Shown here: in pieces, positions 702 through 49,625 of the stretch
How the letters are laid out: the number at the start of each line of letters is the position of its first letter
Position numbering within the stretch: position 1 is the first letter of the stretch
Assembly: GCA_046350775.1 (NCBI GenBank)
Contig: JAXLZS010000001.1
Span: 481,838-545,837 of the forward strand
From: Minisyncoccota bacterium
Lineage (GTDB): Bacteria; Patescibacteriota; Minisyncoccia; Phycocordibacterales; UBA5272
DNA length: 64,000 bases
Direction of reading: 5' to 3'
Made by a program: the position numbers and the translations under genes
Notes under the pieces: generated by a model
What the model was told of the DNA's origin: nothing
Seen by the model: only the letters and a program-made list of their open reading frames with translations
Databases searched by the model: none

Positions 702-908
702 ATGGCATCAGGAGGAGTAACTTATAAACCAAAAAACAAAAAAAGATACACAACTCACGGTTTTTTGACACGTATGCAGACAGCTGGAGGTAAGAATATT
801 ATTAAAAATAGAAGAATTAAAGGCAGAAAGAAATTGTCAGTTTCTGATGAAAAGAAGGTTCTTGTAAAGAGAATGCTCACACATAAGTCTTCTAAAGGTT
901 CTAAATAA
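702..908 (+). CDS. rpmH: 50S ribosomal protein L34 with a C-terminal basic extension
   Basis: [35 protein letters not shown] matches the L34 core motif (KRTxHGFRxRM...GRxVLxxRRxKGRKxL). It lies divergent from dnaA and upstream of rnpA, the classical synteny. Confidence 0.8.
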
Positions 909-943: not shown

Positions 944-1336
944 ATGTTATCTAAAAAAAATAAATTAAATATAGAAGAAATTAAAAGCCTTTTTGATAAA
1001 AAAGAAGGTTTTTCTTTTAATTTAAAGACAACTAGAAATGATTTTTTTGACGCAAAGATATTTTCTAAAAACAAAAAGGAAAGCGCTGGTTCTTTTTCTG
1101 ACATATTTAGTAATAAATTTGCTGTAATTTTGTCTAGCAAGACCTTTAAAAAAGCTGTAGAAAGAAATAAGATAAAAAGACAAATTTATTCTATAATAGA
1201 AAGCTATTTAAAAGATTTGAAAAACACAAATAGTTTTTATTTTGTTTTAATTTATCCCAAAAAAGATATTTTAAATATTAAATTTCAAGATTTAAAGAAA
1301 GAGTTGTATAATACTTTTAATAATAACCTTTTATAA
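944..1336 (+). CDS. rnpA: RNase P protein component
   Basis: Small basic protein with a KKAVERNKIKRQIY motif resembling the RnpA RNR-type motif. Its position between rpmH and yidC supports the call. Confidence 0.7.
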   Translation: MLSKKNKLNIEEIKSLFDKKEGFSFNLKTTRNDFFDAKIFSKNKKESAGSFSDIFSNKFAVILSSKTFKKAVERNKIKRQIYSIIESYLKDLKNTNSFYFVLIYPKKDILNIKFQDLKKELYNTFNNNLL

Positions 1337-1348
1337 TAAATAATTTTT

Positions 1349-2098
1349 ATGTTCCATACCCTATTTTTAGAGCCAATTTATAATATTGTAGTAATGTTTT
1401 TAAACATAATACCAGGACAAGATATTGGTATTGCTATTATCTTAACTACACTTTTAGTGAAAATTGTACTTTTACCACTAAATCTCTCTTCACAGAGAAG
1501 TTCTTATCTTATGCGTGAAGCTCAAGTAGAAATAGACGAAATAAAAAAGAAACACTCTGGAGATAATAGAAAGATAGCAGAAGAGACGATGATTCTCTAT
1601 AAAGAGAAGAAAATAAAGCCTTTTACAAGTATTTTGACTTTGATTATTCAACTCCCTGTATTTTTTGCCCTATATTTTGTTTTTAAAGATGGAATAAAAT
1701 TTGAACCTTCATTAATATATTCTTTTGTGCATTTTCCACAAAACATAGAGCATTTAGCTTTTGGATTTTTGGACATCACAAAGCATTATTGGTGGATCGG
1801 TGTTTTGACTGGTATATCAATGTTTATCTTTTCTAAAAGACAAGCTGACACTCTTAAAAAGATGTCAGGTAATAAAAACAATGAAAATAAAAATGATTTT
1901 AAATCTATCTTTGCAAAAAATATGCAAATGCAAATGACTTATTTATTGCCAATCATATCTGGATTTTCAGCTGCAGTATTACCTGGAGTAATAGGTGTTT
2001 ATTGGACTATTAATAATATTCTAAATATTTTTCAAGATATTTATATTAAAAGAAAATTAAATATAGAAAAATTTATAAAGGAGCATAAGAATAATTAA
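1349..2098 (+). CDS. yidC: Membrane protein insertase YidC/Oxa1 family (short form)
   Basis: Multi-TM protein with the hydrophobic/charged pattern of YidC C-terminal cores (LPLNLSSQRSSYLMREAQ..., KKIKPFTSIL..LIQLPVFFALYFVF). It sits in the rpmH-rnpA-yidC position. Confidence 0.8.
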   Translation: MFHTLFLEPIYNIVVMFLNIIPGQDIGIAIILTTLLVKIVLLPLNLSSQRSSYLMREAQVEIDEIKKKHSGDNRKIAEETMILYKEKKIKPFTSILTLIIQLPVFFALYFVFKDGIKFEPSLIYSFVHFPQNIEHLAFGFLDITKHYWWIGVLTGISMFIFSKRQADTLKKMSGNKNNENKNDFKSIFAKNMQMQMTYLLPIISGFSAAVLPGVIGVYWTINNILNIFQDIYIKRKLNIEKFIKEHKNN

Positions 2099-2544
2099 TC
2101 AAAAGCACCCCCTGTTTTTGGCTGTATGTCTTGAGCAGGGATATTTTTTGTATTTACTGGATCGTTGCTACTATAATTATTTGAATCTAAGGTTTTTATT
2201 TTGATACCAGTATCTTGAATATTAAGTAAATTTTGAGACATTTTGACTATTCCGTAGGCTGAGACCATGACAAATATTGCTATCAAACCCCAAAGCATAA
2301 ATTTTCTACCCTTTTCTAGATCGGCCATATCACCTTTTCCTGTGACCCTTCCTAAAATAAACATAACCCCACCATAAAAAAACAAAATAAAAGCCGAAGC
2401 TATTAGAATATTGGCTACAGTAGAAAAAACATTATTTGTGACATTGTTCGCAAGATTTTTAAAATTTTGATTAGTATCAGCAGCTAATGAATTATTTATA
2501 TATAGCGTAGTTAATATTATTGAAAAATATATTTTAAATTTCAT
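2095..2544 (-). CDS. Small secreted protein with two hydrophobic helices separated by a short charged loop; candidate VirB2/TrbC-like T4SS pilin
   Basis: Signal-peptide-like N-terminus (…NNSLAADTN), then TM1 (ANILIASAFILFFYGGVMFILG), a short loop (RVTGKGDMADLEKGRK) and TM2 (FMLWGLIAIFVMVSAYGIV). This is the VirB2/TrbC pilin architecture. It is the last gene of the T4SS-like cluster. The call rests on topology only. Confidence 0.35.
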   Translation of the reverse strand: MKFKIYFSIILTTLYINNSLAADTNQNFKNLANNVTNNVFSTVANILIASAFILFFYGGVMFILGRVTGKGDMADLEKGRKFMLWGLIAIFVMVSAYGIVKMSQNLLNIQDTGIKIKTLDSNNYSSNDPVNTKNIPAQDIQPKTGGAFD

Positions 2545-2569
2545 TTTTTTATTATATCACTAAAAATAA

Positions 2570-3994
2570 TTAATCACCTTGATAAAGTATATTTTCTATA
2601 TTGAGTGACCAGAGAGATCCGTCATTTTTATTTATAAACAGTACATGTGAGTAACTGTCATTTATTTTTAAATCTTTAGCGTCAACATTTTCAAATACTC
2701 CTCCATCTGTATTTATATTAAATAAAAGCGCCCCATTTGGATAATCAGCACTGACCACATACAAGTTGTCGTCCCAAGTGGTAAAGCCTTGATACCAGGC
2801 ATCTGGTAAGCCAGAATCATAACCTTTTATCTCTTTTGGCACAGAGCAGATAATTAGATTTTCAGAAGTGTCATTTTCTCCACACTTGTTGCTCAAAGTT
2901 GTAAAACTTAGACCAGAGAGACTTGAATCTGAAAAATTTGACCCAGTAAAATTATTATTTAAATAAGTTTTTAAACCCTCTCCTGTGGTCATAGAAATAA
3001 TCGTGGATTTATCATTTATTAAGAAAGATATACCGCTATGAGGACTATAGACCTGCTCTAAATCGCCTAGTATATTATTTTTTGTATCTAGTTTGTATAG
3101 ACTGCTCAATTCGTAATTGGAATCTTTTTTGTATGCATATATATTACCAGAATTAGTGATATTTAATTTCCAGTCAGTTAATTCAGAGTTATATATTCTA
3201 GTACCATAAGTATCACTAATGTTATTTATTAAATACCAATCACTATAAATATCAGGTCTTCCATTTGTGGTCTTGTTTTTATTTACAATATAAATTAGAT
3301 TCTTATTATTTGAAGAAGTGTTTATAAAACTTATATTGTCAGGCATCGTGTTTATATTTTGTAAAGAAATTGGTACTCCTGCAAAATTTGGCACATTAGC
3401 CGAAATAGTTTTAATAGTATTATTTTTTAAATATTGCATTATCACCCTACTCTTTCCACCGTTTTTATTGTTCAAAAAGTAAGCTTTACGAATATTTGGA
3501 TAATATGTGTCTGTGATTTGTGTTGGTGTAGAAGTCGGAGCGGATAAATCTTTTTCATATATAAATCCTGTTGAACTATCTACAAACATCAAAATAGTCT
3601 CTGTAGATGTTTCTGTAACATCTTTATTGAGATCGTCATTATGGTATGTGTAAGGTATATTTTTATAATAAAACCCATATCCAGCGACTGGTTTATCCCA
3701 GATTTTTATTAGACCTTCATTATAAAAATAATTTTGCTGCTCAGTATTTTGATCAGGACTAGTATTTCCAGAATTTCCATTATTTTTATTTTTACTATTT
3801 ACTAAACCAAATAAACTAGAAAAAGTAAAACCAGAATTGGATTGTAAACTAGGATTTGAGTTGTTTACTATCTGTGTATTTCTAAAAAATAAAAAATATA
3901 TTAGACCAACAAAAAGAACTAAAGCTAAAACCGCAATAATTATTTCTTTTTTGTATTTTTTAAAAAATGATTGATTTGGTTGCATATTTAACAA
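2570..3994 (-). CDS. Membrane-anchored extracellular protein (N-terminal TM, N/S/T-rich ectodomain), unknown function
   Basis: Long intact ORF with an N-terminal TM (IIIAVLALVLFVGLIYFLFF). It overlaps the upstream hydrolase gene by 7 nt, so it is operonic. No recognisable catalytic motif. Confidence 0.5.
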   Translation of the reverse strand: MLNMQPNQSFFKKYKKEIIIAVLALVLFVGLIYFLFFRNTQIVNNSNPSLQSNSGFTFSSLFGLVNSKNKNNGNSGNTSPDQNTEQQNYFYNEGLIKIWDKPVAGYGFYYKNIPYTYHNDDLNKDVTETSTETILMFVDSSTGFIYEKDLSAPTSTPTQITDTYYPNIRKAYFLNNKNGGKSRVIMQYLKNNTIKTISANVPNFAGVPISLQNINTMPDNISFINTSSNNKNLIYIVNKNKTTNGRPDIYSDWYLINNISDTYGTRIYNSELTDWKLNITNSGNIYAYKKDSNYELSSLYKLDTKNNILGDLEQVYSPHSGISFLINDKSTIISMTTGEGLKTYLNNNFTGSNFSDSSLSGLSFTTLSNKCGENDTSENLIICSVPKEIKGYDSGLPDAWYQGFTTWDDNLYVVSADYPNGALLFNINTDGGVFENVDAKDLKINDSYSHVLFINKNDGSLWSLNIENILYQGD

Positions 3995-5991
3995 TTTTGT
4001 AAAGATATTTGTAACCCCTCAAAATGCCACGACTCAGAAGGTATTTGCCGCACTCCATATTTAGCAGCATTTTGCCTTAACCATATTTGTTGTTGAGAAT
4101 TAAAAGTCGCAGGATTAGAACATGTGGCACCAGGTTTGTATCCTGGTTTTCCGTTGTCTGCTCCGGCACTATTAAAATCTATGGCGGCACCTAGTTGGTG
4201 AGGTGATGTCCCCGGAGATGCACAACCACTTCCTCCGACACTCCCACAAGAATCAGCAATTCTTGTTGAAGCATTAGATGTTAAGTATGTTTTATATTGA
4301 TCATAATAAGCTTTACCTAAATTTTCAAATTTTTGTGCCACAAGCGAATTAACAAAAGCTCCCTTATTATCAGAGGCTGGCATTTTAGGTAATAAATCTC
4401 CTTTTATGTAGTGTAATCTACAAAGTTTTATTTTTGGTTTATTAATTCCATTAGCTCTATAATTACTATCTATTATTTTAGATTCAGAATTGTTTGGACA
4501 AGGAGTGTCTAGACTTTTATTTGCCAGATCTTGAATATTTTTTAACCTGTCCTGACTTATATTACTCAGAGATTCTTGATTATTATTTGTCTGTATGGTA
4601 CTTTTACACTGCCCAGCCATAAGACCTACAAGTCTCCCGCATCTGTCCCCGGTTTGACTACAATAAGGAGATATTTTTGTTTCTTCCAAGTCTGAATATT
4701 TTATTTGTCCTGCTGCTTTTACATAATTTCCTTCTTTCACAAATTTGAGCATGTTTTTAAAATCATCAAAAGTTCCTTCCCCAGCATAAGACATGTCTAT
4801 CAAAACATTTTTTACATTAAGAGGTAAAGATTCAAAATTTATACCATTTTTTTCTGAAACTCTTTTTGCAATAGCTGTAAAAGTACCAAGATCTTTTTCT
4901 AGTAATTTTTTTACTTGATCAGGTGTTATTGTATATCCTGGTACTTGTTTTCCTGCTTTACTTGGATCTTTTGTAAGACTTGCTAATTTACTAGCATTTG
5001 CTTCATCAACTCCAGCAGCTATTAATTCTTGCTTTACATTATTATTTCTTATTAAATTGTATCCTACACCAATAGTAGGTATGCCTTTTGTATCATAATA
5101 AGCCGTAGTCTTGCTTCCTTCATCTTGAAGAAGCATATTTTCAATATCTGTCTTTGTATAACCAGCAATACTACCACAATCTCCGTTATTACTTGAGCCA
5201 GTACTCCCTAAACCGGTCACACTTTGTATAAATGTCCAACCTGTAAGATCTGGATTAATAAATGAAAGAACTGCATAAGCAAGTATAAAAATCAAAAGCG
5301 CCTTTCCCGCTGTCTCCATTAATTTTTTACCTTTTTGTTGATCGTATATATTCTCAAAAGCTCCTTTGGTTATGGCCCCCTCAATTATCCTAAATGCCAC
5401 TAAAACAATGATGGCTACAGCCATCAAGGTTAAAATATAATTAAAAGCATCTCCTAGTCCGCCGGTGTTTGTATTAGTAAAAGTGGTAGAAGTCGCCTCT
5501 CCACTAAAAGAAGAAATGTTTTGATATGTCTGAACAGCTCCCCCTAATGATCCTCCGTTTGCTGTTTTGTCTCCACAGTCAAACACAAGATCTCCACTTT
5601 TAGTTTTTTCTCCAGCTTTTAACATTAAAGCCTCCCAAGTATATATTCCTACATTTTTTTCTTGAGTGATACCGTTAATATTTCTGAAGGAGTTTATGGC
5701 GTTTAAGGAAGTATTTGTCATTACAGCGGTGTCTATATTATATGAAGAATCTAGACATTTATGATTTTTTAAAGATGTTATAAATAATTTTTCTTTATCT
5801 GCTGCCAGACTAGCATTTACTGCCAGCTCTATTCTAGGATATTTTACTGTGTCTTCATAGGTTGGGTCTGTAGCTGGAGCGGCATGAGATATTTTTACTG
5901 AGTTAAAATTAGCAATAAAAATAAACAAAAAAAATAAAAGAGAAAACATTTTTTTGCCAAAAGAGTTTTTATTTTGAGTATTAAGAAACAT
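3988..5991 (-). CDS. Bifunctional peptidoglycan hydrolase: GH24 (T4-lysozyme-like) domain plus M15/VanY-like D,D-carboxypeptidase domain, membrane-anchored; candidate VirB1/PrgK-like T4SS-associated hydrolase
   Basis: N-terminal signal/TM, then two internal TMs (…LTLMAVAIIVLVAFRII…, …LLIFILAYAVLSFI…). QDEGSKTTAYYDTKGIPTIGVGYNL aligns with the T4 lysozyme motif [24 protein letters not shown]. C-terminal SPHQLGAAIDF and ESWHFEG match the M15 SxHxxGxAxD / ExxH motifs. Confidence 0.7.
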   Translation of the reverse strand: MFLNTQNKNSFGKKMFSLLFFLFIFIANFNSVKISHAAPATDPTYEDTVKYPRIELAVNASLAADKEKLFITSLKNHKCLDSSYNIDTAVMTNTSLNAINSFRNINGITQEKNVGIYTWEALMLKAGEKTKSGDLVFDCGDKTANGGSLGGAVQTYQNISSFSGEATSTTFTNTNTGGLGDAFNYILTLMAVAIIVLVAFRIIEGAITKGAFENIYDQQKGKKLMETAGKALLIFILAYAVLSFINPDLTGWTFIQSVTGLGSTGSSNNGDCGSIAGYTKTDIENMLLQDEGSKTTAYYDTKGIPTIGVGYNLIRNNNVKQELIAAGVDEANASKLASLTKDPSKAGKQVPGYTITPDQVKKLLEKDLGTFTAIAKRVSEKNGINFESLPLNVKNVLIDMSYAGEGTFDDFKNMLKFVKEGNYVKAAGQIKYSDLEETKISPYCSQTGDRCGRLVGLMAGQCKSTIQTNNNQESLSNISQDRLKNIQDLANKSLDTPCPNNSESKIIDSNYRANGINKPKIKLCRLHYIKGDLLPKMPASDNKGAFVNSLVAQKFENLGKAYYDQYKTYLTSNASTRIADSCGSVGGSGCASPGTSPHQLGAAIDFNSAGADNGKPGYKPGATCSNPATFNSQQQIWLRQNAAKYGVRQIPSESWHFEGLQISLQNC

Positions 5992-6041
5992 AGTCTTAAT
6001 TTGATTTAATATTTCTTAATTATATCACATCAAAATATTTT

Positions 6042-6848
6042 TTATCTTCCAGTATTTTCTTTGATTTGATTTATATTAAAATTAATTAAAGTCTCACCTT
6101 CTTGCATATTTTTGTTTGGATTTTCATTACTTAATTTTAATGTTATGCCAGATTTATATCCATTAGAGCTGGGAGCAGAATAATTAAAAATATTTGTAGA
6201 ATTATCAGTTCCAACGATACCATTTAATTCCCAGGCGTAAAAAAGACTTTTGTCGGTAGGATTTTTAACTGAAAAATAAAAAGGCTCGGCCAAAATGTTA
6301 AAATTTTCATTCGTAAACACCTGATATGTTTCATACTTTTTATTAATAGTATTTGCGTAAGTAATTATAGGATTATCATTTTCTCTATATAAAGCAATTA
6401 TAGGATTGTGAGGATATATTTGTATATTTTTTTCAGCTAAAAGATTTTCTTGTCTATTATTTAAATAAACACTTAATTTTAAATTGTTTACATTTTTAAG
6501 CTGATCAAGAGTAATATAAACAACTTTGCTGTTCGTGTTTGAATAATCATAAAGATAATTACCATTATATTCCCACGCATAAAATAGTTTTTCAGGATCT
6601 AGATCTCCTGCCAGTGTTGATATTTTAACTTCAGCGACAGCTTTTATATAAGCCTGTTCGCCAGGGATAGCTCTACCTTCATAAAATGGTGGAGTATAGC
6701 TGTCTATGGCTTGATAATTTATATTTATTTGAGTATTAGTAGTACCTGTTTGTGAATAAGAGTTGGAGGTTTTTAAAAAATAAAAGCCAGGAATTATTAA
6801 AAATAAAAACAGATAAACATATTTATTAATAAAAAACTTTCTTTTCAT
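6042..6848 (-). CDS. Secreted/anchored protein with two internally duplicated ~100-aa domains (LFYAWEYNG / LFYAWELNG); possible T4SS periplasmic component
   Basis: N-terminal hydrophobic signal (YVYLFLFLIIPGFYFL), an internal domain duplication and intact ORF between the VirB4 and hydrolase genes. Confidence 0.45.
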   Translation of the reverse strand: MKRKFFINKYVYLFLFLIIPGFYFLKTSNSYSQTGTTNTQININYQAIDSYTPPFYEGRAIPGEQAYIKAVAEVKISTLAGDLDPEKLFYAWEYNGNYLYDYSNTNSKVVYITLDQLKNVNNLKLSVYLNNRQENLLAEKNIQIYPHNPIIALYRENDNPIITYANTINKKYETYQVFTNENFNILAEPFYFSVKNPTDKSLFYAWELNGIVGTDNSTNIFNYSAPSSNGYKSGITLKLSNENPNKNMQEGETLINFNINQIKENTGR

Positions 6849-6884
6849 TGCTATATTATAGCAAATTATTTTAGATGATTTTAT

Positions 6885-8690
6885 TTAAGATTTTTCAGTT
6901 TCTTCTTTTTTTCTTCTTTCTAAAAGTTGAGCTGGATTTGTGCTTACTATCTGGTCTTCTACATAAGATGCTATCACCTTTATTGCAACATGCTTCTGGC
7001 CAGCAAAAAATATACCTTCTCCTATACCAGATTCTAATAGTAAATATTTTTCTTCATCAGTCAGGTTGAATGTTTTTTGTACAAGATCTATACTTGATGG
7101 AGATTGTTTTAAAAGTAGCTGCATACTCGAGTTGGTAATAATGGGAAGACCATAAGGGGATCTCAAAAAGTCTCCTACGTCTTGAGAAATAGTAGCTAGC
7201 CCTAAATAGTATTTTCTTCCCCTTTTTGCAAGACCAAACAAAAAGGAAGCGGTGTCTTCATTTTTCATCATTATCCAAGCCTCGTCTATTATTAAAAGTC
7301 TCTTTTTTAATTCTTTTCTTACTTCATTCCATATAAAGTGTGTAATTATATACATGGCTACTGGTTTTAGTTCATCTTCCATATCGCGTATAGAAAAACA
7401 AATTAATTTTTTATTAACATCAACGTTTGATGGTTTTCCTATAAATCCTGACCATACTCCGTCTATATATTTTGATAGTCTTTGCATTATATTGTCTGCG
7501 CCTTCTATTCCAGATAATACTTCAGCAAAATCCGAGAGAAGTGGAAATTCTACATCTTCCAAGGATTCTGTTTCTTCAGTAATATCTTTTATTGCGTAAG
7601 TTTCTGTCAAAGCCCTGTCCACTATAGCGTCCTCTTCTGGTGTTAGGCCTCCAAGCATCACTCTCATCAGTCCGACGAGACTTATAATGTTACTTCTTAG
7701 TACCTCACCGACAGATTCGTCTGGCCCAGGTTTTGGAAGATCAAAAGGATTTATGTGATGATTTGAATTTAAAGATATATCAAAATATCTTCCTCCTACA
7801 GACTCCGCCAAGTATTCATACTCTTTTTCCGGATCTATAATAATCACGTTTGTATCAAACATGAGGGTACGCAAAATCTCCAGTTTTGTATAATAAGATT
7901 TTCCAGAACCAGAAGTAGCAAAAACCATACTGTTGTAGTTTTCTAGAGAAAATCTATCAAAAAGTATAAGCGAGCCATTGTGTCTATTTAGCCCATAAAG
8001 AATACCATTGTCTTTTGACAGATCAAAAGATATAAATGGGAAAAATGAAGATAGTGGAGAAGTGTTTAATTCATTTGTTATCTTTAACATATCGGTAGCA
8101 AACGGAAATACAGTCTTTAATGCTTCAGATTGTTGAAATAGTGCCGGCTTAAAATATATAAGTTTACTCTCTAGAATATTTTTTATTTGAGTCTCGGTCT
8201 TCTTTATTTCATCCTCATTATCACCGTATATTGTGACGTATAGTCCTACGTCGAACATTTTTTCACTAGATTGTTGAAGAGAGTCACGAAGATCCTCCAG
8301 GTCTTGTAGAGCTGTCTCAAGTTTTGGGTCGCGCACCTCACCTTTTTCCTGTTTTGTATATATTTGGCTCTCCACCTCAGCCACTTTTTTTTGAAATTTT
8401 TTCATCATTTCAGCTGTTGCGAGTGGGGTTATATGTATAGAGACATTAAAAACCTTGTCTAAATTTATTATAGGAGCAAGCCAAGAGTCGTCTAAATATC
8501 TAGGATAAGAAGTCACAAAAAAACTTTTTGCAATTTTTCCAGAAAGATTTAAAGATTGAGATTCTATTTTTAGACCAGCTGGAGCAATAATATTTTTTAA
8601 TTCTGCATTAGCTTTGTCATAAACCTCTTCATTTGAAATAGTTTTTTCTTTTTCTGTATTATTTTTTGAAAATATATCTAAAAGTCCCAT
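6885..8690 (-). CDS. virB4: VirB4/TrbE/PrgJ-family T4SS ATPase, central plus C-terminal ATPase part
   Basis: Walker A FATSGSGKSY, IIIDPEKEY, Walker B LLIIDEAW and ATISQ motifs. An upstream conserved segment, IAPAGLKIESQSL..FFVTSYPRYLDDSWLAPI, is typical of VirB4 of Gram-positive-type systems. Confidence 0.85.
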   Translation of the reverse strand: MGLLDIFSKNNTEKEKTISNEEVYDKANAELKNIIAPAGLKIESQSLNLSGKIAKSFFVTSYPRYLDDSWLAPIINLDKVFNVSIHITPLATAEMMKKFQKKVAEVESQIYTKQEKGEVRDPKLETALQDLEDLRDSLQQSSEKMFDVGLYVTIYGDNEDEIKKTETQIKNILESKLIYFKPALFQQSEALKTVFPFATDMLKITNELNTSPLSSFFPFISFDLSKDNGILYGLNRHNGSLILFDRFSLENYNSMVFATSGSGKSYYTKLEILRTLMFDTNVIIIDPEKEYEYLAESVGGRYFDISLNSNHHINPFDLPKPGPDESVGEVLRSNIISLVGLMRVMLGGLTPEEDAIVDRALTETYAIKDITEETESLEDVEFPLLSDFAEVLSGIEGADNIMQRLSKYIDGVWSGFIGKPSNVDVNKKLICFSIRDMEDELKPVAMYIITHFIWNEVRKELKKRLLIIDEAWIMMKNEDTASFLFGLAKRGRKYYLGLATISQDVGDFLRSPYGLPIITNSSMQLLLKQSPSSIDLVQKTFNLTDEEKYLLLESGIGEGIFFAGQKHVAIKVIASYVEDQIVSTNPAQLLERRKKEETEKS

Positions 8691-8699
8691 AAAATTTTA

Positions 8700-9293
8700 T
8701 TAATTTTGATTTAAAATAGGTGTATCAAGCTCATTTGGATTAAATAGTTTGTAAAAAAGACTCACTATCTCCTCGGTTTTTAATAATTCAATTTTTAGTC
8801 CGAGAGAAGATAGGCCACTAGTCACTATAGAAACTCTCTGTAAAAGCTGATTTTCATTTTTTGTAAATTCTACATCACTCAATCTTTTACTAGAAGTAGT
8901 TAAGCTTGGTGCCTCATAAGGTACTACTATATAAAAACTTTTTGTCATTATATTTTGTTCTTCTGTGAATTTTTGTATAAAATCTATATATTCTTTGATT
9001 TGTATTTTTAAGAGATCCTCTTCTACCACTTTTTGTCTTTCTTTTAATAGGGTAATATAGTTTCTAATATCTAATTTTTTGGATTGTAAAAATATTTGAA
9101 TATTAAAATCTAAAGAATTTAAAAAAGTTTGAAATCCTGTTATTATACCCATTTGCTCGTCCTCGCTTTTTAAGGACAGATTGAGAGAGCTAGAAGAAAG
9201 TATGGCTCGCATACTTCCGTCGCTCAAAATTAAAATACCATTTCTTACTTCACTTATCGGGACAAAACTCTGTGTAGCATTTTTTATTATCAT
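8700..9293 (-). CDS. VirB4 N-terminal domain encoded as a separate ORF (split gene or pseudogene fragment)
   Basis: FVPISEVRNGILILSDGSMRAIL resembles the VirB4 N-terminus (…PI..IrDG.i.lkDGS.ravl). It ends with TAA about 10 nt before the ATG of the ATPase ORF. Together the two ORFs total ~800 aa, a full VirB4. Confidence 0.55.
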   Translation of the reverse strand: MIIKNATQSFVPISEVRNGILILSDGSMRAILSSSSLNLSLKSEDEQMGIITGFQTFLNSLDFNIQIFLQSKKLDIRNYITLLKERQKVVEEDLLKIQIKEYIDFIQKFTEEQNIMTKSFYIVVPYEAPSLTTSSKRLSDVEFTKNENQLLQRVSIVTSGLSSLGLKIELLKTEEIVSLFYKLFNPNELDTPILNQN

Positions 9294-9341
9294 ACTAAAT
9301 ATTATAGCATTTAATTTTTTAGTATTAGAATTTATAAAAAA

Positions 9342-9833
9342 TTAAATCTGATATTTTCCTGATCTTTTCAAAATGCTTTCTCTTAGATTGAGTCTTTTTT
9401 CTTGTTTTTCTTCTAAAATATCAAGCTTTCCTGCTAGTTCTTTTATTTTATCTTGAGTTATAATTTTATTTTTTATTGCCTCCTCTTCTTTCTTTTTATT
9501 TATTTCATTTTGTCTTAAGATTTCGCTACTTAATTCTTCTTTTTTAATTTCTTGTTGTTTTTCCCAGACAAAAGTTTTATTTCCAATTAAGAATTTATAA
9601 GCCGATTCTAAAACATCAGCAAAAGGTCTGGTATTTATTTTTACAAAAGCCAATGCTAAAAACGTGCCAGAAAATATAAGTATTAGAAAAATAGAGATTA
9701 TTGCACTTGGTATCAGTTTCCAGAAAATATATGCAAAAGCAATAGCTCCTAAAAGATAACCAAATTGTTTAAAAGTAAAAGGGCCAAAAACCTTATCTTC
9801 AATATCTAAAAATTGAGGAATTCTAAATTGCAT
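9342..9833 (-). CDS. PrgI/VirB3-like small membrane protein (two TM helices plus a C-terminal coiled-coil tail)
   Basis: MQFRIPQFLDIEDKVFGPFTFKQFGYLLGAIAFAYIFW… followed by a second TM, located immediately upstream of VirB4 as in Gram-positive T4SS (prgI-prgJ order). No catalytic motifs are expected for this family. Confidence 0.45.
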   Translation of the reverse strand: MQFRIPQFLDIEDKVFGPFTFKQFGYLLGAIAFAYIFWKLIPSAIISIFLILIFSGTFLALAFVKINTRPFADVLESAYKFLIGNKTFVWEKQQEIKKEELSSEILRQNEINKKKEEEAIKNKIITQDKIKELAGKLDILEEKQEKRLNLRESILKRSGKYQI

Positions 9834-9859
9834 AATTATATTTTAGCACAATAAATCAA

Positions 9860-10960
9860 TCAGATTGTCTCTCTATAAGGATCAAAAGCCTCTTCTACTG
9901 ATGTAGATTCTTGTAAAGAATTTGAATTTTCTTTTACATTTTTCATCTCTTTTGCATAATAAGTTGGATTTTTTGCTTGTCTGTATGCTTCCTCCTTTTC
10001 TCTTTCTTGTTTCAATAAATCCAGATCTTGATTTTCTTTTTCTCCGTTTTCAATTTTTTCTTTTAGAGTCTCAGCAAAAATTTTACTTATTTCTTCATTT
10101 TCTTTATCTGGCTGAATATCTATATTTTTATATTCTTTATTTTCTTTTGCTGCTGTTTGAGATTGGTTTTCTTTATCTCTTTCCTCTCTTAATGCTTTTT
10201 CCTCTTGCTTTTTTCTTTCTGTTTCAGCTATTCTTTCTTCTTCTTCTTTTTTAATTTGAGCCATTCTTTCTTTTATCTTATCAGTATCTGAGACGTTTTT
10301 TAGATTTAGTTTAGCCAATAAAGAGTCTCTGTTTAGCTCAGATTTTTCTTCTTGTTTTTCTGTGATATTTTGTTTGTTTGATTCTCTGTTTTTATATCCT
10401 ACCAAGATTTCACCTTTACCATTTAGATTGCCGGTTCTTTCTAAAAGAATTTTTCGTAGTTCTTCTTTTTCTTTTTCTTCGTTACTTTCTTTTAATGTTA
10501 AATGTCTTATTTCTTTATTTGTATCAGATTTACTTTGAAGTATTTGTTTTCTTATGTCAGATAAAATATAGGCGTCTATATTTTTCATTATAAGTCCAGC
10601 TGAAAAGTCTTCTAATAATACCCCGCTAGCTTTAAAGCTTTCCATTAGAGTATTTTTTGCTTCAGTTATAGGAAGTATTCCCACTAATATAGACACAGCT
10701 ACATTTTCTATTATGATATTTGCTTTTTCATCATCCAATTTTTCTATTTTACAAATTAATCTTATATTTTCTTCAAATTTGTCACTTAAAATGTAGTTTT
10801 GTATTGCTGGAGAGGATTGATTAAAAGCTAAATCAAATTTATCAGAAAAATTTTCCTCTGAATTATTTTTTTGATCCTCATGTAAAAAAGCATAATCAGA
10901 TGTATTTTCTTCTTCTTTATTTTGGAGTGTCTCTATATTTTCTTGAGTATCATTTGGCAT
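9860..10960 (-). CDS. Highly charged (E/K-rich) predicted coiled-coil cytoplasmic protein, unknown function
   Basis: Long intact ORF of low-complexity E/K-rich composition with heptad-like patterns. It sits between the VirB6-like and VirB3-like genes. Confidence 0.45.
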   Translation of the reverse strand: MPNDTQENIETLQNKEEENTSDYAFLHEDQKNNSEENFSDKFDLAFNQSSPAIQNYILSDKFEENIRLICKIEKLDDEKANIIIENVAVSILVGILPITEAKNTLMESFKASGVLLEDFSAGLIMKNIDAYILSDIRKQILQSKSDTNKEIRHLTLKESNEEKEKEELRKILLERTGNLNGKGEILVGYKNRESNKQNITEKQEEKSELNRDSLLAKLNLKNVSDTDKIKERMAQIKKEEEERIAETERKKQEEKALREERDKENQSQTAAKENKEYKNIDIQPDKENEEISKIFAETLKEKIENGEKENQDLDLLKQEREKEEAYRQAKNPTYYAKEMKNVKENSNSLQESTSVEEAFDPYRETI

Positions 10961-11019
10961 AATTAATAAAAATTAATTTATTAATTATATTTTAACATGA
11001 ATTATTTTTAATTCATCTT

Positions 11020-13803
11020 TTATTTAAGTAGTCCCCTTATTTTTGTGTTTGTTAAAGGTAGTTGATCAGAAGCTTTAGAAGATGGTCTTTTTCTGTTTTT
11101 TAATCTTTCTTGTGTTATAGCTTTTAATGTTTCTGCCATAGATTTTTGTTTTTTTGGATTAGCTCCAATAAAAGCTTTACCAAAGCCGCCTTCTTTTAAT
11201 GCTTGTCTTACGTCTTTATCTTTTAATATTTCTCTAGCTTGATTATTCCTGGAGCTGTTTGGACTGATTGGTGATACAGAAGAATTTGTATTTTGAGTAG
11301 AATTTATACTTTCTGTCGTCAAATTATCTGAGCCGTTTGTTATGGGATTTTTGATTTCCACAGTCTTTAATTTTTGATTATTTTTTGAGCTTTTATTGTT
11401 TTCATTACCAATTTTAGCTTGGCTTCTAGCTAAATTTCTTTGAATCCTTTTTTGTTCATCAGAATTTATTTCTGACACGCTTACTCCTTTTCTTTTAGCT
11501 TTATCCTCTTGAGATTCTATTTGTGTCCTGTCTTTATAAGGTTTATAAGAATTAATATTTAAATTCTCTGGTTTTTTTGTGGGCTCTTTACCTGTCATCA
11601 TTTTAATTTGAGATGATCTCCATTCTTGTTTTGTTCTTTTTTTATTTTCTAATGAGTCTCCAAATTTTTCTCTATTTGCAGCATTTATCGTATCAAAAGA
11701 ATTCGCGATGTTTTGGTTTTGTATAGATGGTTTTTGTCCAGTAGGAGCTATTACGCTACTTTGCGCTGTTTGTAGAGGTATTGGTCTACGATTTTGTGTA
11801 TTATTATTTTGCCAAGGGTTTTCGGTGGCATTTCCACTTCCCGTATTACTTGTAGTATTTATCTGTCTGTTTCCTCTTATTCTATTAAATGCTTTTGTGG
11901 CACCACTTGCTACTCCGCCAGTAAAGCTAGATACAGCTCCGGATATTGTACCACCAACCTCTCCGCTTAGATTTTTAGCAACTGTTATAGCCAACTGCAT
12001 CACCACTACCACAACTATTGTCTTTATTATACCAGCCAAAAATCCTGGATTATCAACCGTTGCAGCATCTAGTTCACTGTTTGTTTTAATAAGATCGCCA
12101 GAAATATTTCCTATTCTGATAGCGATCATCATCATAAACATAAAAATAGGAGCAAGTAAAAGGTTGTTTATAAAATTTGTCATCACCATACCTTTATATT
12201 TCTTGAGCACATCGCCAAACTTTCCAGGAAGATCATCAGGCAGTACCATAATTGGAGAAAATATTAAGCATAACAGCAAGACTATACTTCTTGAAAAAAT
12301 TAATATCATAGCTTGAAATAAAACGTATAAACCTAATACATTTACACATATTTGTCCAAATGTGTACGCGACAGTACTCCAATCCCCTAAATATTTTATA
12401 TTATCTATAGTTTTTTGATTGTCTCCTGCTGATATTCCTAGTGTATTACTTATAACATCTCCAAAATTTTGAGAAGTGTCTCCACCATGAATGGCTCTGT
12501 ATGTATATATTGTGACGATATTAGATTGATCTACCAGCCACCCTGCTATACCAAAAGAGAAATATATAAATAGTGCGGTAAATAAAATTTTTGGCAGGAC
12601 TTTCTCTATTTTTTTTGTATCATTTTCTATCAACATCATTATAATTAAATAAAAAACTAGAGGTAGCATAAGAGATGCTATGGCTGCAAGTATTATCGTC
12701 TTATAAATTTCTACAGCATGTGAATTTTGGACCCAGTCTTTGAAATTTAAGACACTCATATCAAAGATCCAATTAAATAAAGTTCCTAACCATCCTAATA
12801 CTATTCCTATTGTACTAGCTATCAATTTGAACATACCATTAACTACATATGCTGCTAGACTACAATTTGGATTGTCTATAACATTATTAGTTCCAACTCC
12901 CCACAGAATTTTTGTTTGGCATTTATTGTTAAATTCCGCTTGGATGCCTCTTGGCTGATCTGGAAGTGTTGAACCGACTGAGTCATCAGTAATATCTGTA
13001 AACTTTACTATTGTATTTAAATCTATTTTTTCATTTGAGCTTAGGCCGTAACCATTTCTGTCGGCGTAGACTGTCTTACTATTAATTTCTTCATCTGTAA
13101 GAGCCCTCTCTGCCCGAGACCAATTTAGATTTCCTCCATCGTGAGTAAATTTTTGTATACCCTCAGCTTCTTTTCTTATCTCAGGATCCATCATAGTGTA
13201 AAGTGATGATGTGGCGTTTAGAAATTTTGTAACTTGTATATAGTTATACAAACGTACAGCCCTATGTAAAGTGTCAGAAACATCATCGGTAGAATCAATC
13301 CCATTATTAGGTTTTGATGTTACATTTGCAAGATTTGGTATAGCTATTTGTCTGTTTATACCCAATTCATACTCATCTTTTCCTTTTCTTAAAACATCAA
13401 AAGTGTTATCGTATTCATTTTTTGCTATGGTTAGTCCATTAGTTATAGTTTGAATTAAGAATTTTTTTAATAATGTAGAGCTTGCGTCATTAGCTGTAAT
13501 ATCATTAATACCTTTTATATAATCTCCAAGATTATTTGTCTCATCAATAATATAAGCCTTTTTTGCTTCTTCTTGAATTATTTTTATATTTTCGTTTTCT
13601 TTTGTGGTGTTTGTGGTAGTTGCTTTTATGAAATCTATCTGATTAGATTTATTAATTGTGTCATAAAAGTTTATGTTTATTGCAGCGTTAGCTTTATTTT
13701 GTTTCTTTCCTGCTCCGAATACAAAGATTAAACAAACTATCACTACAAATAATAATTTTAATGAATAAAAAGAGAAAATTTTAGAAAATATATTTCTAGA
13801 CAT
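11020..13803 (-). CDS. VirB6/TrbL/PrgH-like polytopic membrane protein with a large N-terminal extracellular domain and a low-complexity basic C-terminal tail
   Basis: Signal/TM, then a ~330-aa ectodomain, then at least 5 TM helices (ILAAIASLMLPLVFYLIIMMLIE, ILFTALFIYFSFGIAGWLV, VLGLYVLFQAMILIFSRSIVLLLCLIFSPIMVL, LLLAPIFMFMMMIAIRI, IIKTIVVVVVMQLAITV), then a G/S/T/N/K-rich tail. The topology and cluster position match VirB6-like channel proteins. No sequence-level proof. Confidence 0.5.
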   Translation of the reverse strand: MSRNIFSKIFSFYSLKLLFVVIVCLIFVFGAGKKQNKANAAININFYDTINKSNQIDFIKATTTNTTKENENIKIIQEEAKKAYIIDETNNLGDYIKGINDITANDASSTLLKKFLIQTITNGLTIAKNEYDNTFDVLRKGKDEYELGINRQIAIPNLANVTSKPNNGIDSTDDVSDTLHRAVRLYNYIQVTKFLNATSSLYTMMDPEIRKEAEGIQKFTHDGGNLNWSRAERALTDEEINSKTVYADRNGYGLSSNEKIDLNTIVKFTDITDDSVGSTLPDQPRGIQAEFNNKCQTKILWGVGTNNVIDNPNCSLAAYVVNGMFKLIASTIGIVLGWLGTLFNWIFDMSVLNFKDWVQNSHAVEIYKTIILAAIASLMLPLVFYLIIMMLIENDTKKIEKVLPKILFTALFIYFSFGIAGWLVDQSNIVTIYTYRAIHGGDTSQNFGDVISNTLGISAGDNQKTIDNIKYLGDWSTVAYTFGQICVNVLGLYVLFQAMILIFSRSIVLLLCLIFSPIMVLPDDLPGKFGDVLKKYKGMVMTNFINNLLLAPIFMFMMMIAIRIGNISGDLIKTNSELDAATVDNPGFLAGIIKTIVVVVVMQLAITVAKNLSGEVGGTISGAVSSFTGGVASGATKAFNRIRGNRQINTTSNTGSGNATENPWQNNNTQNRRPIPLQTAQSSVIAPTGQKPSIQNQNIANSFDTINAANREKFGDSLENKKRTKQEWRSSQIKMMTGKEPTKKPENLNINSYKPYKDRTQIESQEDKAKRKGVSVSEINSDEQKRIQRNLARSQAKIGNENNKSSKNNQKLKTVEIKNPITNGSDNLTTESINSTQNTNSSVSPISPNSSRNNQAREILKDKDVRQALKEGGFGKAFIGANPKKQKSMAETLKAITQERLKNRKRPSSKASDQLPLTNTKIRGLLK

Positions 13804-13866
13804 GAATATATTGTATCATAAAAACGGTCACTACGAGAGTGTAGTGACCGTTTATTTTCAATGTTT

Positions 13867-16383
13867 TTATTCGCTGCAATTACTTTCTACAAATTGCTGG
13901 ATAAGCTCTGTGGTCGATGCTGTAGACTTACAATATTCATTTGATGTACCATCCGAAGATGAACAGAAATTTTTTATCTCTGTCTCTGGTGAGGCGCATA
14001 TTTCAGAAACATTCTTACTTACAGCTACGAAATTTGGATCATTTTGTAGTTGATAAACTAAATTATTTATCGTATTTTGAGTCATCGTCAGATTTTTAAG
14101 ATCACAAATACCTATACCTATTTTTTCACAATAAGCTTTTTCAGAATATGTGGAGCTATTTTTACTAGAAACTTGGAATGGATAAGCTTTTCTAGGTACG
14201 TCTGGAGTAAATCTTAATAGTGAAGTGTATCCAAAACCATTTAAAAATGAAGGTATATATGGATTTGATGTTGAGCTATTTATTGCATAATTTTTTACTA
14301 ATTGAAAAGCTCTTAATCTTATATTTTCTAAATAGTGAGCACTAAATGGAGCAGAAGTCTCATAATCTGTTGGTATAAATTGTTTTGTTGATTTATCATC
14401 TATGTTTGGTGTATTTTCGCTACTTGTAAACTTTGAAATAAAGTTCCAGTCTAGAGTCACTTCTGCGAGCTGTTCTTCTGTTATTGTATTGTCTAGAGCT
14501 TTTGCTATTTTATCCATATTGTCTTCTGGTCTAGCGTTTGTACTTAAAAAGAGATTTTGTAGCTCGTTTAATTTTTGCTCTTTGTAATTGTTATACGCCA
14601 TCTGACTTATAAGACTACGTATATCTTTACCTAAATTATTAAAAGCAGTATTAAATTTATTTGTTGCTGATCTAATATTAATCAGGTCAGCATAAGCTTT
14701 TTTGTTCTTTTTATTTCCTCCTAGCAATCCGTATAGATTATAAGTAAATACGTTTAATATTGCGCCTTTTGTTCTCACCTCTTGTAATTCTGTCTTATAG
14801 TCTTGATTGATTTGGCCTGTATATCCTAATGCTAATTTTAATATTGAGTAAGTATAAACTTCTTCATTAAGTTTTTCAGTATTTATTTCTCTGGCTTGTT
14901 TATAAAGGTCTAAGACTACAGGTATCCTATCTGCTGTCGCTGTAGCTGTGATGCCGAGAGCATATTCTTTATTTGAATTTCTACTTGCATCTCCTAGGTC
15001 AAAGCTACTCTTGGTTATTCCGACTACATTGTCTAGCGTGGTGGCAAGTTGAGCATAAGTATTGTTGGTTGTAAAATCTGGAGATTGACCATTATTATTA
15101 CTGTATCCCATACCAAGAATACTATTTGCTATATCTAAAAATGAATTGGCTTGATTTGCGTATTTAGAAATACCACAAGCTATATCATTGAATGAGGCTC
15201 CTCCACTTGATGACCCTCCCTGCAATTGGGAAAGAGCTGAAATATCAGAAGCAGATCCACCGCCAGATCCAGAAAGAGATGATATATCAGAAGAAGACAT
15301 GCTACTTCCACCACAAGAAGCGTTTGTTGATTGTGCTTTTGCTAATATGTCTAGATATGGAGAAAGTCTCGCTGCGTCGATATTTGATTTTATTACAGCC
15401 GCACTACTAGATGCTGACGTCACTAAATTATCACAAAGAGCTTTATTAGGATCAGAAGCGTCAAACTTTTTTGCTTTTCCATCTTTATCGACACATATCT
15501 GACTTCCTATTATCCCACCATTGCTTGTGTATTGATTTGTGGCGTTAGTTATACTTTCATTATAAGCTTTATTAATTTTATCCTCTAGTGCTGCTGCTAC
15601 TCCACTAGGCGTGTTTGCTGGATCTGCTAGAGCGACATTTGTTAGTGGTCCACCGTATCCAGCTTTTGCTAAACCAATAAATACTACTTGAGCGGACTTG
15701 CCTTCTGTTTCAGAAGAAAGATCTGTGTTACATAATTTGTCTATATCTACATTTTTAACTGAAGGTTTTGGATTTATGTATGTTTTTGGTTCTCCATTTT
15801 TCACTATATTTTTTAATTTATCACTATTACAAATCTCTTTTTGGGCGACAAAGGGCAACTTGATTGCTATGCTTTCATTAGCCTCACTTCTTATTTTCTT
15901 TGTCACATTTTTTAAAGCTGTACTTATGTATGGATTTGTGCCAGATTGAGTAGCTTGATCATTTAATACATTTCTTATGGCATTTTCTCCATTACTCTTT
16001 AAAAATCCTTTTAGATCAGTCACTACTTGAGCTCCGTTTGTTAGAGGATTTGTAAAGGCATCACGCTTTATAGATATTGATTGGGTCACAGCGTCTCCGA
16101 TTTGTTTTATAGCTACACCAGAAAGATTTGAAGCCAGCATAGACATGTCAAAATTTTTTATATTTTTAGCAAGAGCGGCTGCACTTTTTGCAGTAGTTAC
16201 AACAGTTTTTGCTGCTTGTACTCCGAGTCTTATATCGTCAATTACCATATTTGCGGTTTGGACAATAGTTAAAGCGTTTTGTACAGGATCAAGAGCAAAG
16301 GCTCGCATAGAAAAGGTACTTAAATATACAAAAATCCCTAGTATAAGAATGTATTTTTTGATTTTTAGATTTATTTTTTTCAT
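13867..16383 (-). CDS. Large secreted protein (838 aa) with signal peptide, helical N-terminal region, S/G-rich linker and Cys-containing C-terminal domain; possible T4SS surface/adhesin component
   Basis: Intact ORF with a clear signal peptide (ILILGIFVYLSTFSMRAFA) and a central SSDISSLSGSGGGSASDISALS linker. Its position within the T4SS-like cluster is the only functional clue. Confidence 0.55.
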   Translation of the reverse strand: MKKINLKIKKYILILGIFVYLSTFSMRAFALDPVQNALTIVQTANMVIDDIRLGVQAAKTVVTTAKSAAALAKNIKNFDMSMLASNLSGVAIKQIGDAVTQSISIKRDAFTNPLTNGAQVVTDLKGFLKSNGENAIRNVLNDQATQSGTNPYISTALKNVTKKIRSEANESIAIKLPFVAQKEICNSDKLKNIVKNGEPKTYINPKPSVKNVDIDKLCNTDLSSETEGKSAQVVFIGLAKAGYGGPLTNVALADPANTPSGVAAALEDKINKAYNESITNATNQYTSNGGIIGSQICVDKDGKAKKFDASDPNKALCDNLVTSASSSAAVIKSNIDAARLSPYLDILAKAQSTNASCGGSSMSSSDISSLSGSGGGSASDISALSQLQGGSSSGGASFNDIACGISKYANQANSFLDIANSILGMGYSNNNGQSPDFTTNNTYAQLATTLDNVVGITKSSFDLGDASRNSNKEYALGITATATADRIPVVLDLYKQAREINTEKLNEEVYTYSILKLALGYTGQINQDYKTELQEVRTKGAILNVFTYNLYGLLGGNKKNKKAYADLINIRSATNKFNTAFNNLGKDIRSLISQMAYNNYKEQKLNELQNLFLSTNARPEDNMDKIAKALDNTITEEQLAEVTLDWNFISKFTSSENTPNIDDKSTKQFIPTDYETSAPFSAHYLENIRLRAFQLVKNYAINSSTSNPYIPSFLNGFGYTSLLRFTPDVPRKAYPFQVSSKNSSTYSEKAYCEKIGIGICDLKNLTMTQNTINNLVYQLQNDPNFVAVSKNVSEICASPETEIKNFCSSSDGTSNEYCKSTASTTELIQQFVESNCSE

Positions 16384-16394
16384 ATTTTTTATTT

Positions 16395-17327
16395 TTATTT
16401 AGCATCAACTCCTAAACTTTTAAAATAATTTAAAAAGTCATTTATTGCTTTTGTAAAAGATGTCTCGAAATTATTTAAGTAATTATCTCCACCTAGAGCC
16501 AAAAATTTCATCGGGTCAGTTTGTATTTTTATTAAAGATTGCATATATGCATTTTGCTCCTCAAGTAAATTTATTATTTCTAGCTGATAGCTAGCTCCTC
16601 CTACTGTTGCTGGTATAGATATAAGAGAGTTTATTAATTCTAGATTTGCGTTTATTTTTTTATTTATTTGGTCAGACACAACATTTGGCATTGTGCCATC
16701 TGAATTTAGTACCAATTTTGAATTATCTATACTTTTATATTTATTGATAGATTCAGAAATTTTTTCTCCATATTTCTGAAAAGCAGAAGATACTTGGTTG
16801 TAGTATTCTTGGTAAGAATTAAAATTTTCTTCTCTTGTCACATTTAAAGCGCTCAAAGTTTGTATATTTCCCTCTGCTTGAGCTTTATATTTTAATAGGA
16901 CATCAGCTAAAACCTTTCCCCTTGTGACCTCATCAGTCACTCCATTTTGTTGTAAATAAAGATTGGTCATTATCAAGTCTTGTGAAAGATCGTAAGTCAA
17001 ATTATTATTTGGATTATTTACATAGTCACTATTGGTATCGTATTTTGTACCGGACAAATCGATGCCATAATCTTTAGCTATCTGATCTATCATTATGCAG
17101 CTTTCTCCATTTTTAGGATCGATTGTGACCATATTCCCATAAATATCTCTACATGTATTATTTTTATTATCAGATAGATAGTTTTTATTATTACTTTTTG
17201 TCTGTGTAAGTATAAAAATCAAAACCACCATGACCAATATTCCATAAAGATAAGTCTTTATGCTGACCTGTTGTAACAAGTCTTTTGTTTTATTTAAAAA
17301 ACTATTTTCACTATTTTTAAATTGCAT
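16395..17327 (-). CDS. Bitopic membrane protein (short cytoplasmic N-terminus, one TM, ~260-aa ectodomain); VirB8/TcpC-like topology
   Basis: TM at about residues 25-45 (YLYGILVMVVLIFILT) and cluster context. Only the topology is seen. Confidence 0.4.
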   Translation of the reverse strand: MQFKNSENSFLNKTKDLLQQVSIKTYLYGILVMVVLIFILTQTKSNNKNYLSDNKNNTCRDIYGNMVTIDPKNGESCIMIDQIAKDYGIDLSGTKYDTNSDYVNNPNNNLTYDLSQDLIMTNLYLQQNGVTDEVTRGKVLADVLLKYKAQAEGNIQTLSALNVTREENFNSYQEYYNQVSSAFQKYGEKISESINKYKSIDNSKLVLNSDGTMPNVVSDQINKKINANLELINSLISIPATVGGASYQLEIINLLEEQNAYMQSLIKIQTDPMKFLALGGDNYLNNFETSFTKAINDFLNYFKSLGVDAK

Positions 17328-49595: not shown

Positions 49596-49625
49596 AAAAA
49601 GCGGAGAATTGATCTCCGCTTTTTA
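49596..49625. terminator. Intrinsic terminator downstream of tig (aaaaagcggagaattgatctccgcttttt)
   Basis: 7-bp stem GCGGAGA / TCTCCGC with flanking A/T runs. Confidence 0.75.

Follow-up and report, generated by a model that had tools for sequence, protein, structure and literature searches.

A large part of bacterial diversity belongs to the Patescibacteria, which live on other cells. In one of them, Southlakia epibionticum, transposon sequencing by Wang et al. (2023) identified an origin-proximal type IV secretion system (T4SS) cluster, SEML1_0006-0019, as essential for epibiotic growth; this system is nearest to the T4SSs by which Gram-positive bacteria conjugate and contains pilins, with no recognisable coupling or relaxase proteins (PMC10633639). 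Quiñonero-Coronel et al. (2025) found VirB4 in 2,417 of 3,035 genomes, with most copies forming one clade nested in MPF_FATA. In Patescibacteria, TrsD, PrgI/VirB3, VirB6 and VirB2-like pilins were found near virB4 and relaxases were almost absent, and in Paceibacteria and others virB4 lies close to dnaA, dnaN, rnpA, ksgA and rpmH (PMC12102498). A 2025 review describes the Patescibacteria T4SS as a new but established member of the superfamily (PMC12857230). The locus analysed here is a T4SS gene cluster of a Minisyncoccota bacterium (GenBank assembly GCA_046350775.1), a Paceibacteria / Ca. Elulimicrobiales-like member of the ultra-small Patescibacteria. It lies in a stretch of 64,000 nucleotides (nt) of contig JAXLZS010000001.1 (positions 481,838 to 545,837 of the forward strand), which is called the window below.

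The cluster spans positions 2095-17327 and consists of 11 co-directional minus-strand genes between yidC/rnpA/rpmH/dnaA and ksgA/uvrD. The genes are tightly packed, with spacers of 9-63 nt or overlaps, and all 11 open reading frames (ORFs) are intact. The cluster is a genuine T4SS of the Paceibacteria type, complete and well conserved, and descends from the MPF_FATA (CD1110/pGO1-like) conjugation machinery of monoderm bacteria. Very probably it is a chromosomal, vertically inherited T4SS of the Patescibacteria type that serves contact and exchange with a host cell, and not conjugative DNA export. A preliminary description, made from the sequence alone, had proposed a domesticated, non-conjugative T4SS-like apparatus, and gene content, genomic context and literature support this proposal (PMC10633639, PMC12102498, PMC12857230). 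Every ORF was present at the coordinates given there. As comparison with the published Patescibacteria clusters shows the same system, the proposal is correct but not new (PMC10633639, PMC12102498). In order of transcription, the cluster contains the following features, all on the minus strand:

16395-17327, minus strand: p310, a transmembrane (TM)-anchored ectodomain protein of 310 amino acids (aa), conserved and adjoining ksgA.
13867-16383, minus strand: p838, a large secreted protein of 838 aa with a signal peptide, a Ser/Gly-rich centre and a Cys-rich C-terminus.
13822-13853, minus strand: hairpin with a perfect 14-bp stem and, after it, TTTTTAT; it separates the stop of 13867-16383 from the start of virB6 (terminator scan and reading of the sequence).
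11020-13803, minus strand: VirB6-like "extended" polytopic membrane protein of 927 aa, so named from its topology, its position and TrbL matches among its relatives.
9860-10960, minus strand: soluble protein of 366 aa, of which the N-terminal domain is conserved and the tail is an E/K-rich coiled coil; no family match.
9342-9833, minus strand: PrgI/VirB3-like two-TM protein of 163 aa (Pfam PrgI 4.3e-10, 40.4 bits, cut-off 27).
8700-9293, minus strand: TrsD-like protein of 197 aa, a separate VirB4 N-terminal domain (NF045971 positions 3-171 of 752).
6885-8690, minus strand: VirB4 ATPase, C-terminal two-thirds, 601 aa (NF045971, P-loop_TraG and PDB 4ag5 matches).
6042-6848, minus strand: p268, an N-terminally anchored or secreted protein of 268 aa with two tandem Ig/FN3-like beta-sandwich domains.
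3988-5991, minus strand: cell-wall hydrolase of 667 aa with a signal peptide, an N-terminal ectodomain, a hairpin, a GH24 domain and an M15/VanY domain.
2570-3994, minus strand: p474, a membrane-anchored beta-propeller of 474 aa with a TM helix, a disordered linker of ~50 aa and the propeller.
2095-2544, minus strand: borderline VirB2/TrbC-like pilin of 149 aa with a signal peptide and two hydrophobic helices separated by a Lys-rich loop.

Nothing essential sets this cluster apart from the T4SSs of the Patescibacteria clade. It shares with them an MPF_FATA VirB4, a TrsD-like gene of its own, PrgI/VirB3, a probable VirB6-like protein and putative VirB2-like pilins, as well as lysozyme/peptidase genes downstream of virB4, a neighbourhood without relaxase or coupling protein, and a chromosomal site next to dnaA/dnaN, rnpA, rpmH and ksgA. 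Three features were not found in the earlier papers (PMC10633639, PMC12102498), namely the pilin-like hairpin of the hydrolase, the folds of the Ig-tandem and beta-propeller partners and, in the lineage of the window, one free pilin gene next to yidC in place of a pilin array.

Relatives were sought in one genome per GTDB species, among which at least 530 species representatives encode one, and a set of 86 related loci (1.48 Mb) was compared with the window. The best 80 of these relatives all come from metagenome-assembled genomes of Patescibacteria (Paceibacteria, Parcubacteria, Nomurabacteria and Ca. Elulimicrobiales), and their VirB4 proteins are 65-89% identical to that of the window. An identical VirB4 protein was found on several metagenome contigs of the Joint Genome Institute (JGI; L001, L002, L004 and L005) with the same gene order. 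The genes that flank the cluster in the window are listed below:

1-535, minus strand: N-terminal 178 codons of dnaA, the translation of which reads as a DnaA N-terminus with the Walker A motif GNTGLGKTH; replication origin region.
702-908, plus strand: rpmH (the equivalent L001 gene carries a Ribosomal_L34 annotation).
944-1336, plus strand: rnpA (Pfam Ribonuclease_P 2e-11).
1349-2098, plus strand: yidC (Pfam 60KD_IMP 1e-38).
17415-18203, minus strand: ksgA/rsmA (Pfam RrnaAD 1.6e-58).
18228-20273, minus strand: uvrD/pcrA-like helicase gene (Pfam UvrD-helicase 2e-86).

The order uvrD-ksgA-variable genes-virB6-coiled-coil gene-prgI-trsD-virB4-p268-hydrolase slot-p474-yidC-rnpA-rpmH-dnaA is found in nearly all loci with enough flanking sequence, and together with the housekeeping flanks it recurs in ~80 species-level Patescibacteria genomes. 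The rpmH/rnpA/yidC flank is kept in most related loci, in which ksgA and uvrD are likewise kept upstream of the cluster. The placement in the conserved chromosomal core, which had been read from the window alone, is thus borne out across species. In the same loci, the median identity is 67.6% for VirB4 and 51% for TrsD, compared with 53.9% for the DnaA N-terminus, 49.9% for UvrD, 47.2% for KsgA and 34.6% for YidC. Because order and flanks are shared and VirB4 is more conserved than the flanking genes, the cluster is best described as a core, vertically inherited and strongly selected system, and not as an integrative and conjugative element (ICE).

The possibility of an ordinary conjugation module of an ICE or plasmid, with relaxase, VirD4 and integrase just outside the region, nevertheless has to be weighed, since the component set and the order PrgI-VirB4-hydrolase are those of Gram-positive conjugation modules. 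As in the MPF_FATA modules of Bacillota (pGO1 trsC-D-E-G, pCF10 prgH-I-J-K-L and CD1110/CD1115-type plasmids, of which NZ_CP143494.1 is a Clostridium example), PrgI is encoded directly upstream of a CD1110-family VirB4, a wall hydrolase directly downstream of it, and no outer-membrane core complex is present. As in pGO1, TrsD is a separate protein resembling the VirB4 N-terminus. A Clostridium perfringens plasmid carries the order MobC, relaxase, DUF3801, VirD4, two small genes, PrgI, VirB4 and SLT hydrolase, the PrgI-VirB4-hydrolase part of which confirms the likeness to clostridial conjugation systems that the preliminary description had noted. A tyrosine recombinase is moreover encoded at 30199-31236.

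Several observations argue against such a module, however. The nearest plasmid VirB4s, which are conjugation ATPases of Bacillota and Actinomycetota, are just 29-35% identical to that of the window. When every ORF of 110 aa or more in the 64 kb was scanned with Pfam, no relaxase, no VirD4/TraG-type coupling protein and no VirB11 was detected, and in the related loci none of the three was found within 10 kb of virB4 in either direction. Likewise, tblastn searches with clostridial VirD4, relaxase and MobC gave no match in the window or the 86 related loci, so that both approaches agree with the absence of conjugation genes noted earlier. The P-loop NTPases of the 64 kb are limited to DnaA, VirB4, UvrD and a ComM-like protein. 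Compared with the Bacillota modules, no VirB8-like or PrgB-type adhesin gene was recognised in the window, and it has candidate VirB2-like pilin modules, of a kind lacking in Gram-positive systems (PMC12857230). The recombinase has Xer-like domain content and lies 13 kb from the cluster, behind ksgA, uvrD and other core genes. Housekeeping genes are found on both sides of the cluster, with the same flanks in ~60 or more species, and on the contigs with identical VirB4 the full dnaA is followed past the window start by dnaN and a gene for a penicillin-binding protein. The GC content is ~30% over the whole window and uniform across cluster and flanks. Fixed as it is in the chromosome core, the cluster is most improbably part of a mobile element.

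The larger of the two ORFs earlier assigned to VirB4, 6885-8690, matches NF045971, the NCBIfam profile of the CD1110 family of VirB4-like conjugal transfer ATPases, with 385.9 bits (cut-off 325), and spans positions 169-734 of its 752 positions. Pfam P-loop_TraG (3e-24) and the VirB4 structure PDB 4ag5 (1.5e-37) match as well, and Walker A (SGSGKS) and Walker B (LLIIDEAW) are both intact; the ATPase thus profiles as VirB4, as predicted. In the smaller ORF, 8700-9293, the match to this profile extends over positions 3-171, so that the two ORFs tile a single VirB4; a full-length clostridial VirB4 aligns through both of them. The smaller ORF also matches NF041427 TrsD (1.4e-9), and the identical gene of L001 carries the annotation PF26593 TraC-like.

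At the junction of the two ORFs in the window, which are in the same frame, the sequence reads TAA TAA, 6 nt and then ATG. Taken by itself, this arrangement would fit a decaying remnant of a conjugation system in which VirB4 has been broken in two. Across the related loci, however, the TrsD-like gene is a separate ORF in 80 of 81 cases; all three frames relative to virB4 occur, and the gaps are mostly 1-10 nt, so that the split is an ancient two-gene arrangement and not damage. A frameshift, a pseudogene or stop-codon read-through was ruled out on the same grounds and because TAA or TAG dominate across the 80 loci. TrsD is a known family; the two-gene arrangement is known from pGO1 and is reported to be the T4SS component found most often in Patescibacteria (PMC12102498). 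With the Walker motifs and all 11 ORFs intact, and with VirB4 more conserved than its housekeeping neighbours, decay is barely credible. Both ORFs are therefore derived from VirB4, as had been stated, but they form an ancient pair of TrsD-like protein and VirB4 and not a broken gene.

Directly upstream of this pair, the PrgI/VirB3 identity proposed for 9342-9833 holds, as the match exceeds the Pfam cut-off and the gene adjoins the virB4 module; a prgI gene is found at this position in 82 of the 86 loci. The preceding gene, 9860-10960, belongs to a family of 76 ORFs in 71 loci, collected by iterative profile search. Nearly all of these homologues are encoded right upstream of prgI, 1.6-3.3 kb ahead of the start of virB4, and two are found further upstream. 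This shared position speaks against compositional drift.

The large membrane protein encoded by 11020-13803 had been described as VirB6/PrgH-like. Its topology and position fit this assignment: a signal or TM segment is followed by an ectodomain of ~290 aa, a six-TM core (aa ~300-640, 11884-12906) and a hydrophilic tail of ~290 aa, and the location upstream of prgI is kept in related loci. A direct family match is absent, however. The protein itself gave no match in Pfam, NCBIfam or PDB profile searches, and a word-indexed protein search gave 2 hits. For its TM core, 1290 relatives were collected (E <= 1e-3) among representatives of clusters at 50% identity. TrbL/VirB6, the sole Pfam family that recurs among the relatives, was detected in 4 of 54 of them (phmmer E <= 1e-10) and in 1 of 39 syntenic homologues, with a best value of 2.2e-7. 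By way of these relatives, the protein is a probable VirB6. The hairpin at 13822-13853, which is strong and terminator-like, may act as a terminator or attenuator that splits p310 and p838 from the core operon. In addition, an extended -10-like element, TGATACAAT, is found ~9 nt upstream of the virB6 ATG, and the leader of virB6 could be very short.

At the other end of the cluster, the product of 2095-2544 had been singled out for its VirB2/TrbC topology. Its signal peptide and two-TM hairpin agree with this, but its Pfam T4SS_pilin score is just under the cut-off (8.5e-6, 26.2 bits compared with 26.6), while TrbC scores 19 bits. In the next species, in which VirB4 is 85-89% identical (L007 and L009), there is no room for a pilin gene between p474 and yidC. 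The free pilin gene therefore appears to have been gained recently or to evolve very fast.

A second pilin-like hairpin was found within the cell-wall hydrolase, the domains of which are as follows:

5242-5484, minus strand: VirB2-like two-TM hairpin, aa ~170-250 (family profile).
4702-5124, minus strand: GH24 lysozyme domain, aa 290-430 (Phage_lysozyme 26.1 bits, cut-off 22.3).
4051-4221, minus strand: M15/VanY peptidase domain, aa 591-647 (VanY 20.3 bits, short of its cut-off of 25).

The combination of GH24 lysozyme and M15 peptidase had already been recognised. It is upheld by the GH24 score and, as the M15 score falls short of its cut-off, by the readable motifs EG..Y.D..G..TIG, SPHxxGxAxD and ESWH, which include the zinc-ligand motifs of M15. 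The slot between p268 and p474, in which the hydrolase is encoded, holds a family of 71 ORFs in 64 loci, and the two-TM hairpin is the sole part that they all share. T4SS_pilin was detected at E <= 1e-3 in 42 of 70 members (best 2.6e-9), and two of ten members examined singly reach its Pfam cut-off. The hydrolase of the window does not reach that cut-off itself, and a hidden Markov model built from four pilin sequences was uninformative for it (3-6 bits). Against a profile of the slot family built without its close relatives, however, it scores E = 8e-5, and its orthologue in L009 scores 2.4e-13. The orthologue in L007 shows weak T4SS_pilin together with lysozyme and VanY. Within the family, the hairpin is followed in a single polypeptide by VanY, by NlpC/P60 or by lysozyme and VanY; SLT-type domains also occur, and some members consist of the pilin alone (examples of the hairpin-hydrolase slot are L036:3479-5206, L041:6558-8759, L043:12827-14482 and L055:4294-6075).

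No description of such a fusion of pilin hairpin and hydrolase was found in the literature searched. The Pfam entries T4SS_pilin (PF18895) and SLT_3 (PF18896) are numbered consecutively, however, and their curators may have noticed it. If the hairpin adopts the topology of VirB2, the hydrolase would have its ectodomain at the N-terminus and its enzymes at the C-terminus both outside the membrane. With little confidence, we suggest that the hairpin marks a pilin-type subunit that is part of the pilus or channel and brings the enzyme outward, with which the apparatus would breach the host wall at the point of contact. Alternatively, the hairpin merely anchors a VirB1-like enzyme that remodels the wall of the cell itself.

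The remaining genes of the cluster encode putative surface partners. The tandem-Ig protein p268 and the beta-propeller protein p474 are found at the same positions in 79 and 65 of the 86 loci, respectively. In p268, noted earlier as a secreted protein with a duplicated domain, the duplication consists of two Ig/FN3-like sandwiches, while the protein is either secreted or N-terminally anchored. The TM helix noted in p474 is present, and what had been an unspecified ectodomain is a beta-propeller; it is a generic one, and p474 was rejected as a known T4SS part as it has no T4SS match. By position, these two proteins were the best candidates for a VirB8/TcpC/PrgL-like NTF2 fold, and both have other folds. 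The p310 family, with 53 syntenic homologues from an iterative profile search, also gave no VirB8/PrgL match in Pfam and no match in PDB searches. Judged by its sequence, the ectodomain of p310 is apparently mostly helical, and bacterial TSP3 repeats, which are extracellular and bind calcium, were detected in 13 of 47 relatives. Homologues of p838 are confined to the 4 closest species; the protein evolves fast and has no family match, and from its position it is inferred to be part of the T4SS machine.

In many Paceibacteria, a small protein of 105-230 aa with 2-4 TM helices and the motif E-x-IP-x-x-x-x-LP-x-WT is encoded right after virB4 (e.g. L038:11822-12238, L059:11862-12281 and L060:11811-12230). 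This family has no Pfam match and is absent from the window, in which the Ig-tandem gene starts 36 nt after virB4.

Taken as a working apparatus for host contact and exchange, these components suggest a mechanism in which PrgI would anchor VirB4, the detached N-domain would join it, and VirB4 would energise assembly. VirB4, VirB3, TrsD and VirB6 would form a membrane translocon with a VirB6-based channel, and a VirB2-type pilus would be assembled through a wall that the hydrolase opens locally. The apparatus would then serve contact and the exchange of material with the host cell during epibiotic growth. The same parts could also constitute a device for pilus or adhesin assembly only, in which VirB4, VirB3 and VirB6 build a VirB2-type filament and display surface proteins without any translocation. 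VirB4 is the pilus-biogenesis ATPase in known systems (PMC12102498), a coupling ATPase that would feed substrates was not found, putative pilin modules are present, and extracellular partners are many (the Ig tandem, the propeller, the p310 relatives with TSP3 repeats and p838). Adhesion is already provided by type IV pili in Saccharibacteria, however (PMC12857230), the free pilin gene is not kept at the locus outside the closest contigs, and a large VirB6-like channel protein has been retained. A role restricted to filament assembly is thus quite unlikely.

A third role that the components would allow is uptake, with a VirB4-driven channel or pilus importing macromolecules of the host (DNA, RNA or other nutrients) in the manner of archaeal Ced or Helicobacter ComB. 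Patescibacteria do without nucleotide synthesis. Like Ced and ComB, the cluster combines a VirB4-family ATPase with the lack of a detectable relaxase and coupling protein, as is the case in import systems, and its VirB4 gives a partial match to the CedB profile (7e-11). A 2026 preprint on feeding on host RNA moreover reports tubular structures at the host interface "that may be T4SS pili" (10.64898/2026.06.21.733656). The CedB match is far under the cut-off, however (41 bits compared with 700), and confined to the shared ATPase core, while the best-matching family is the conjugative CD1110 type. CedA/CedA1-like or ComB-specific subunits were not identified, and the gene content is that of monoderm bacterial conjugation. 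In S. epibionticum, deletion of comEC ends competence without loss of viability, so that the essential role is something other than taking up DNA by transformation (PMC12857230). The direction of transport cannot be read from sequence; on balance, we regard import as an unlikely function. The window also encodes ComEC (53395-55983, plus strand), with a separate gene for a metallo-beta-lactamase-fold protein, and a ComM-like protein (25222-26784, minus strand), so that DNA uptake has machinery of its own apart from the T4SS.

Some points weigh against assigning the cluster to host contact and exchange. The function is inferred by carrying it over from another class, Saccharimonadia. A distant VirD4-like gene is possible beyond the 64 kb, as such hits, far from virB4, have been reported for most Patescibacteria (PMC12102498). 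No VirB8-like component was found among the partners examined, the support for VirB6 is transitive only, and the free pilin falls 0.4 bits under the Pfam cut-off and is limited to the contigs with identical VirB4.

A few features elsewhere in the window were also recorded. From ~60730 to 64000 on the plus strand, and running off the window end, a very long secreted repeat protein is encoded, in which a collagen-like stretch (GPQGPAGPPGP) is followed by dozens of "SNFLG/SNFFG"-type repeats; it is probably an adhesin of fibrous type at the cell surface. On the minus strand, the ~900 nt (48716-49600) that separate tig (49640-50791) from an HU-like gene (48443-48715), itself located upstream of clpP, contain no ORF. 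Within this gap, a GC-richer part at ~49000-49370 carries repeated GTCCAGCGAC / GCTGGACAT elements with a T-run at the end. No Rfam family was found in the gap (48.7-49.6 kb) at E <= 0.1, and it may encode an unrecognised RNA. The RNase P RNA (41585-41871, minus strand) measures 287 nt, compared with the 367 positions of the bacterial class A model, and scores 107.7 bits (cut-off 100); its shortening is consistent with a reduced genome.

The system itself, its lack of conjugation genes and its origin-proximal site were already known from work published between 2023 and 2025. To these, the present analysis makes small additions, namely the family of pilin-hydrolase fusions and two conserved surface partners with assigned folds, neither of which is VirB8-like. 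The window does not hold a new kind of system, but a clean and complete example of the Paceibacteria type. The Patescibacteria T4SS is the first T4SS shown to be necessary for the survival of its owner, in Saccharibacteria. The fusion family, the two surface partners and the lack of a VirB8-like fold among the proteins examined could guide structural and genetic work on this machinery.

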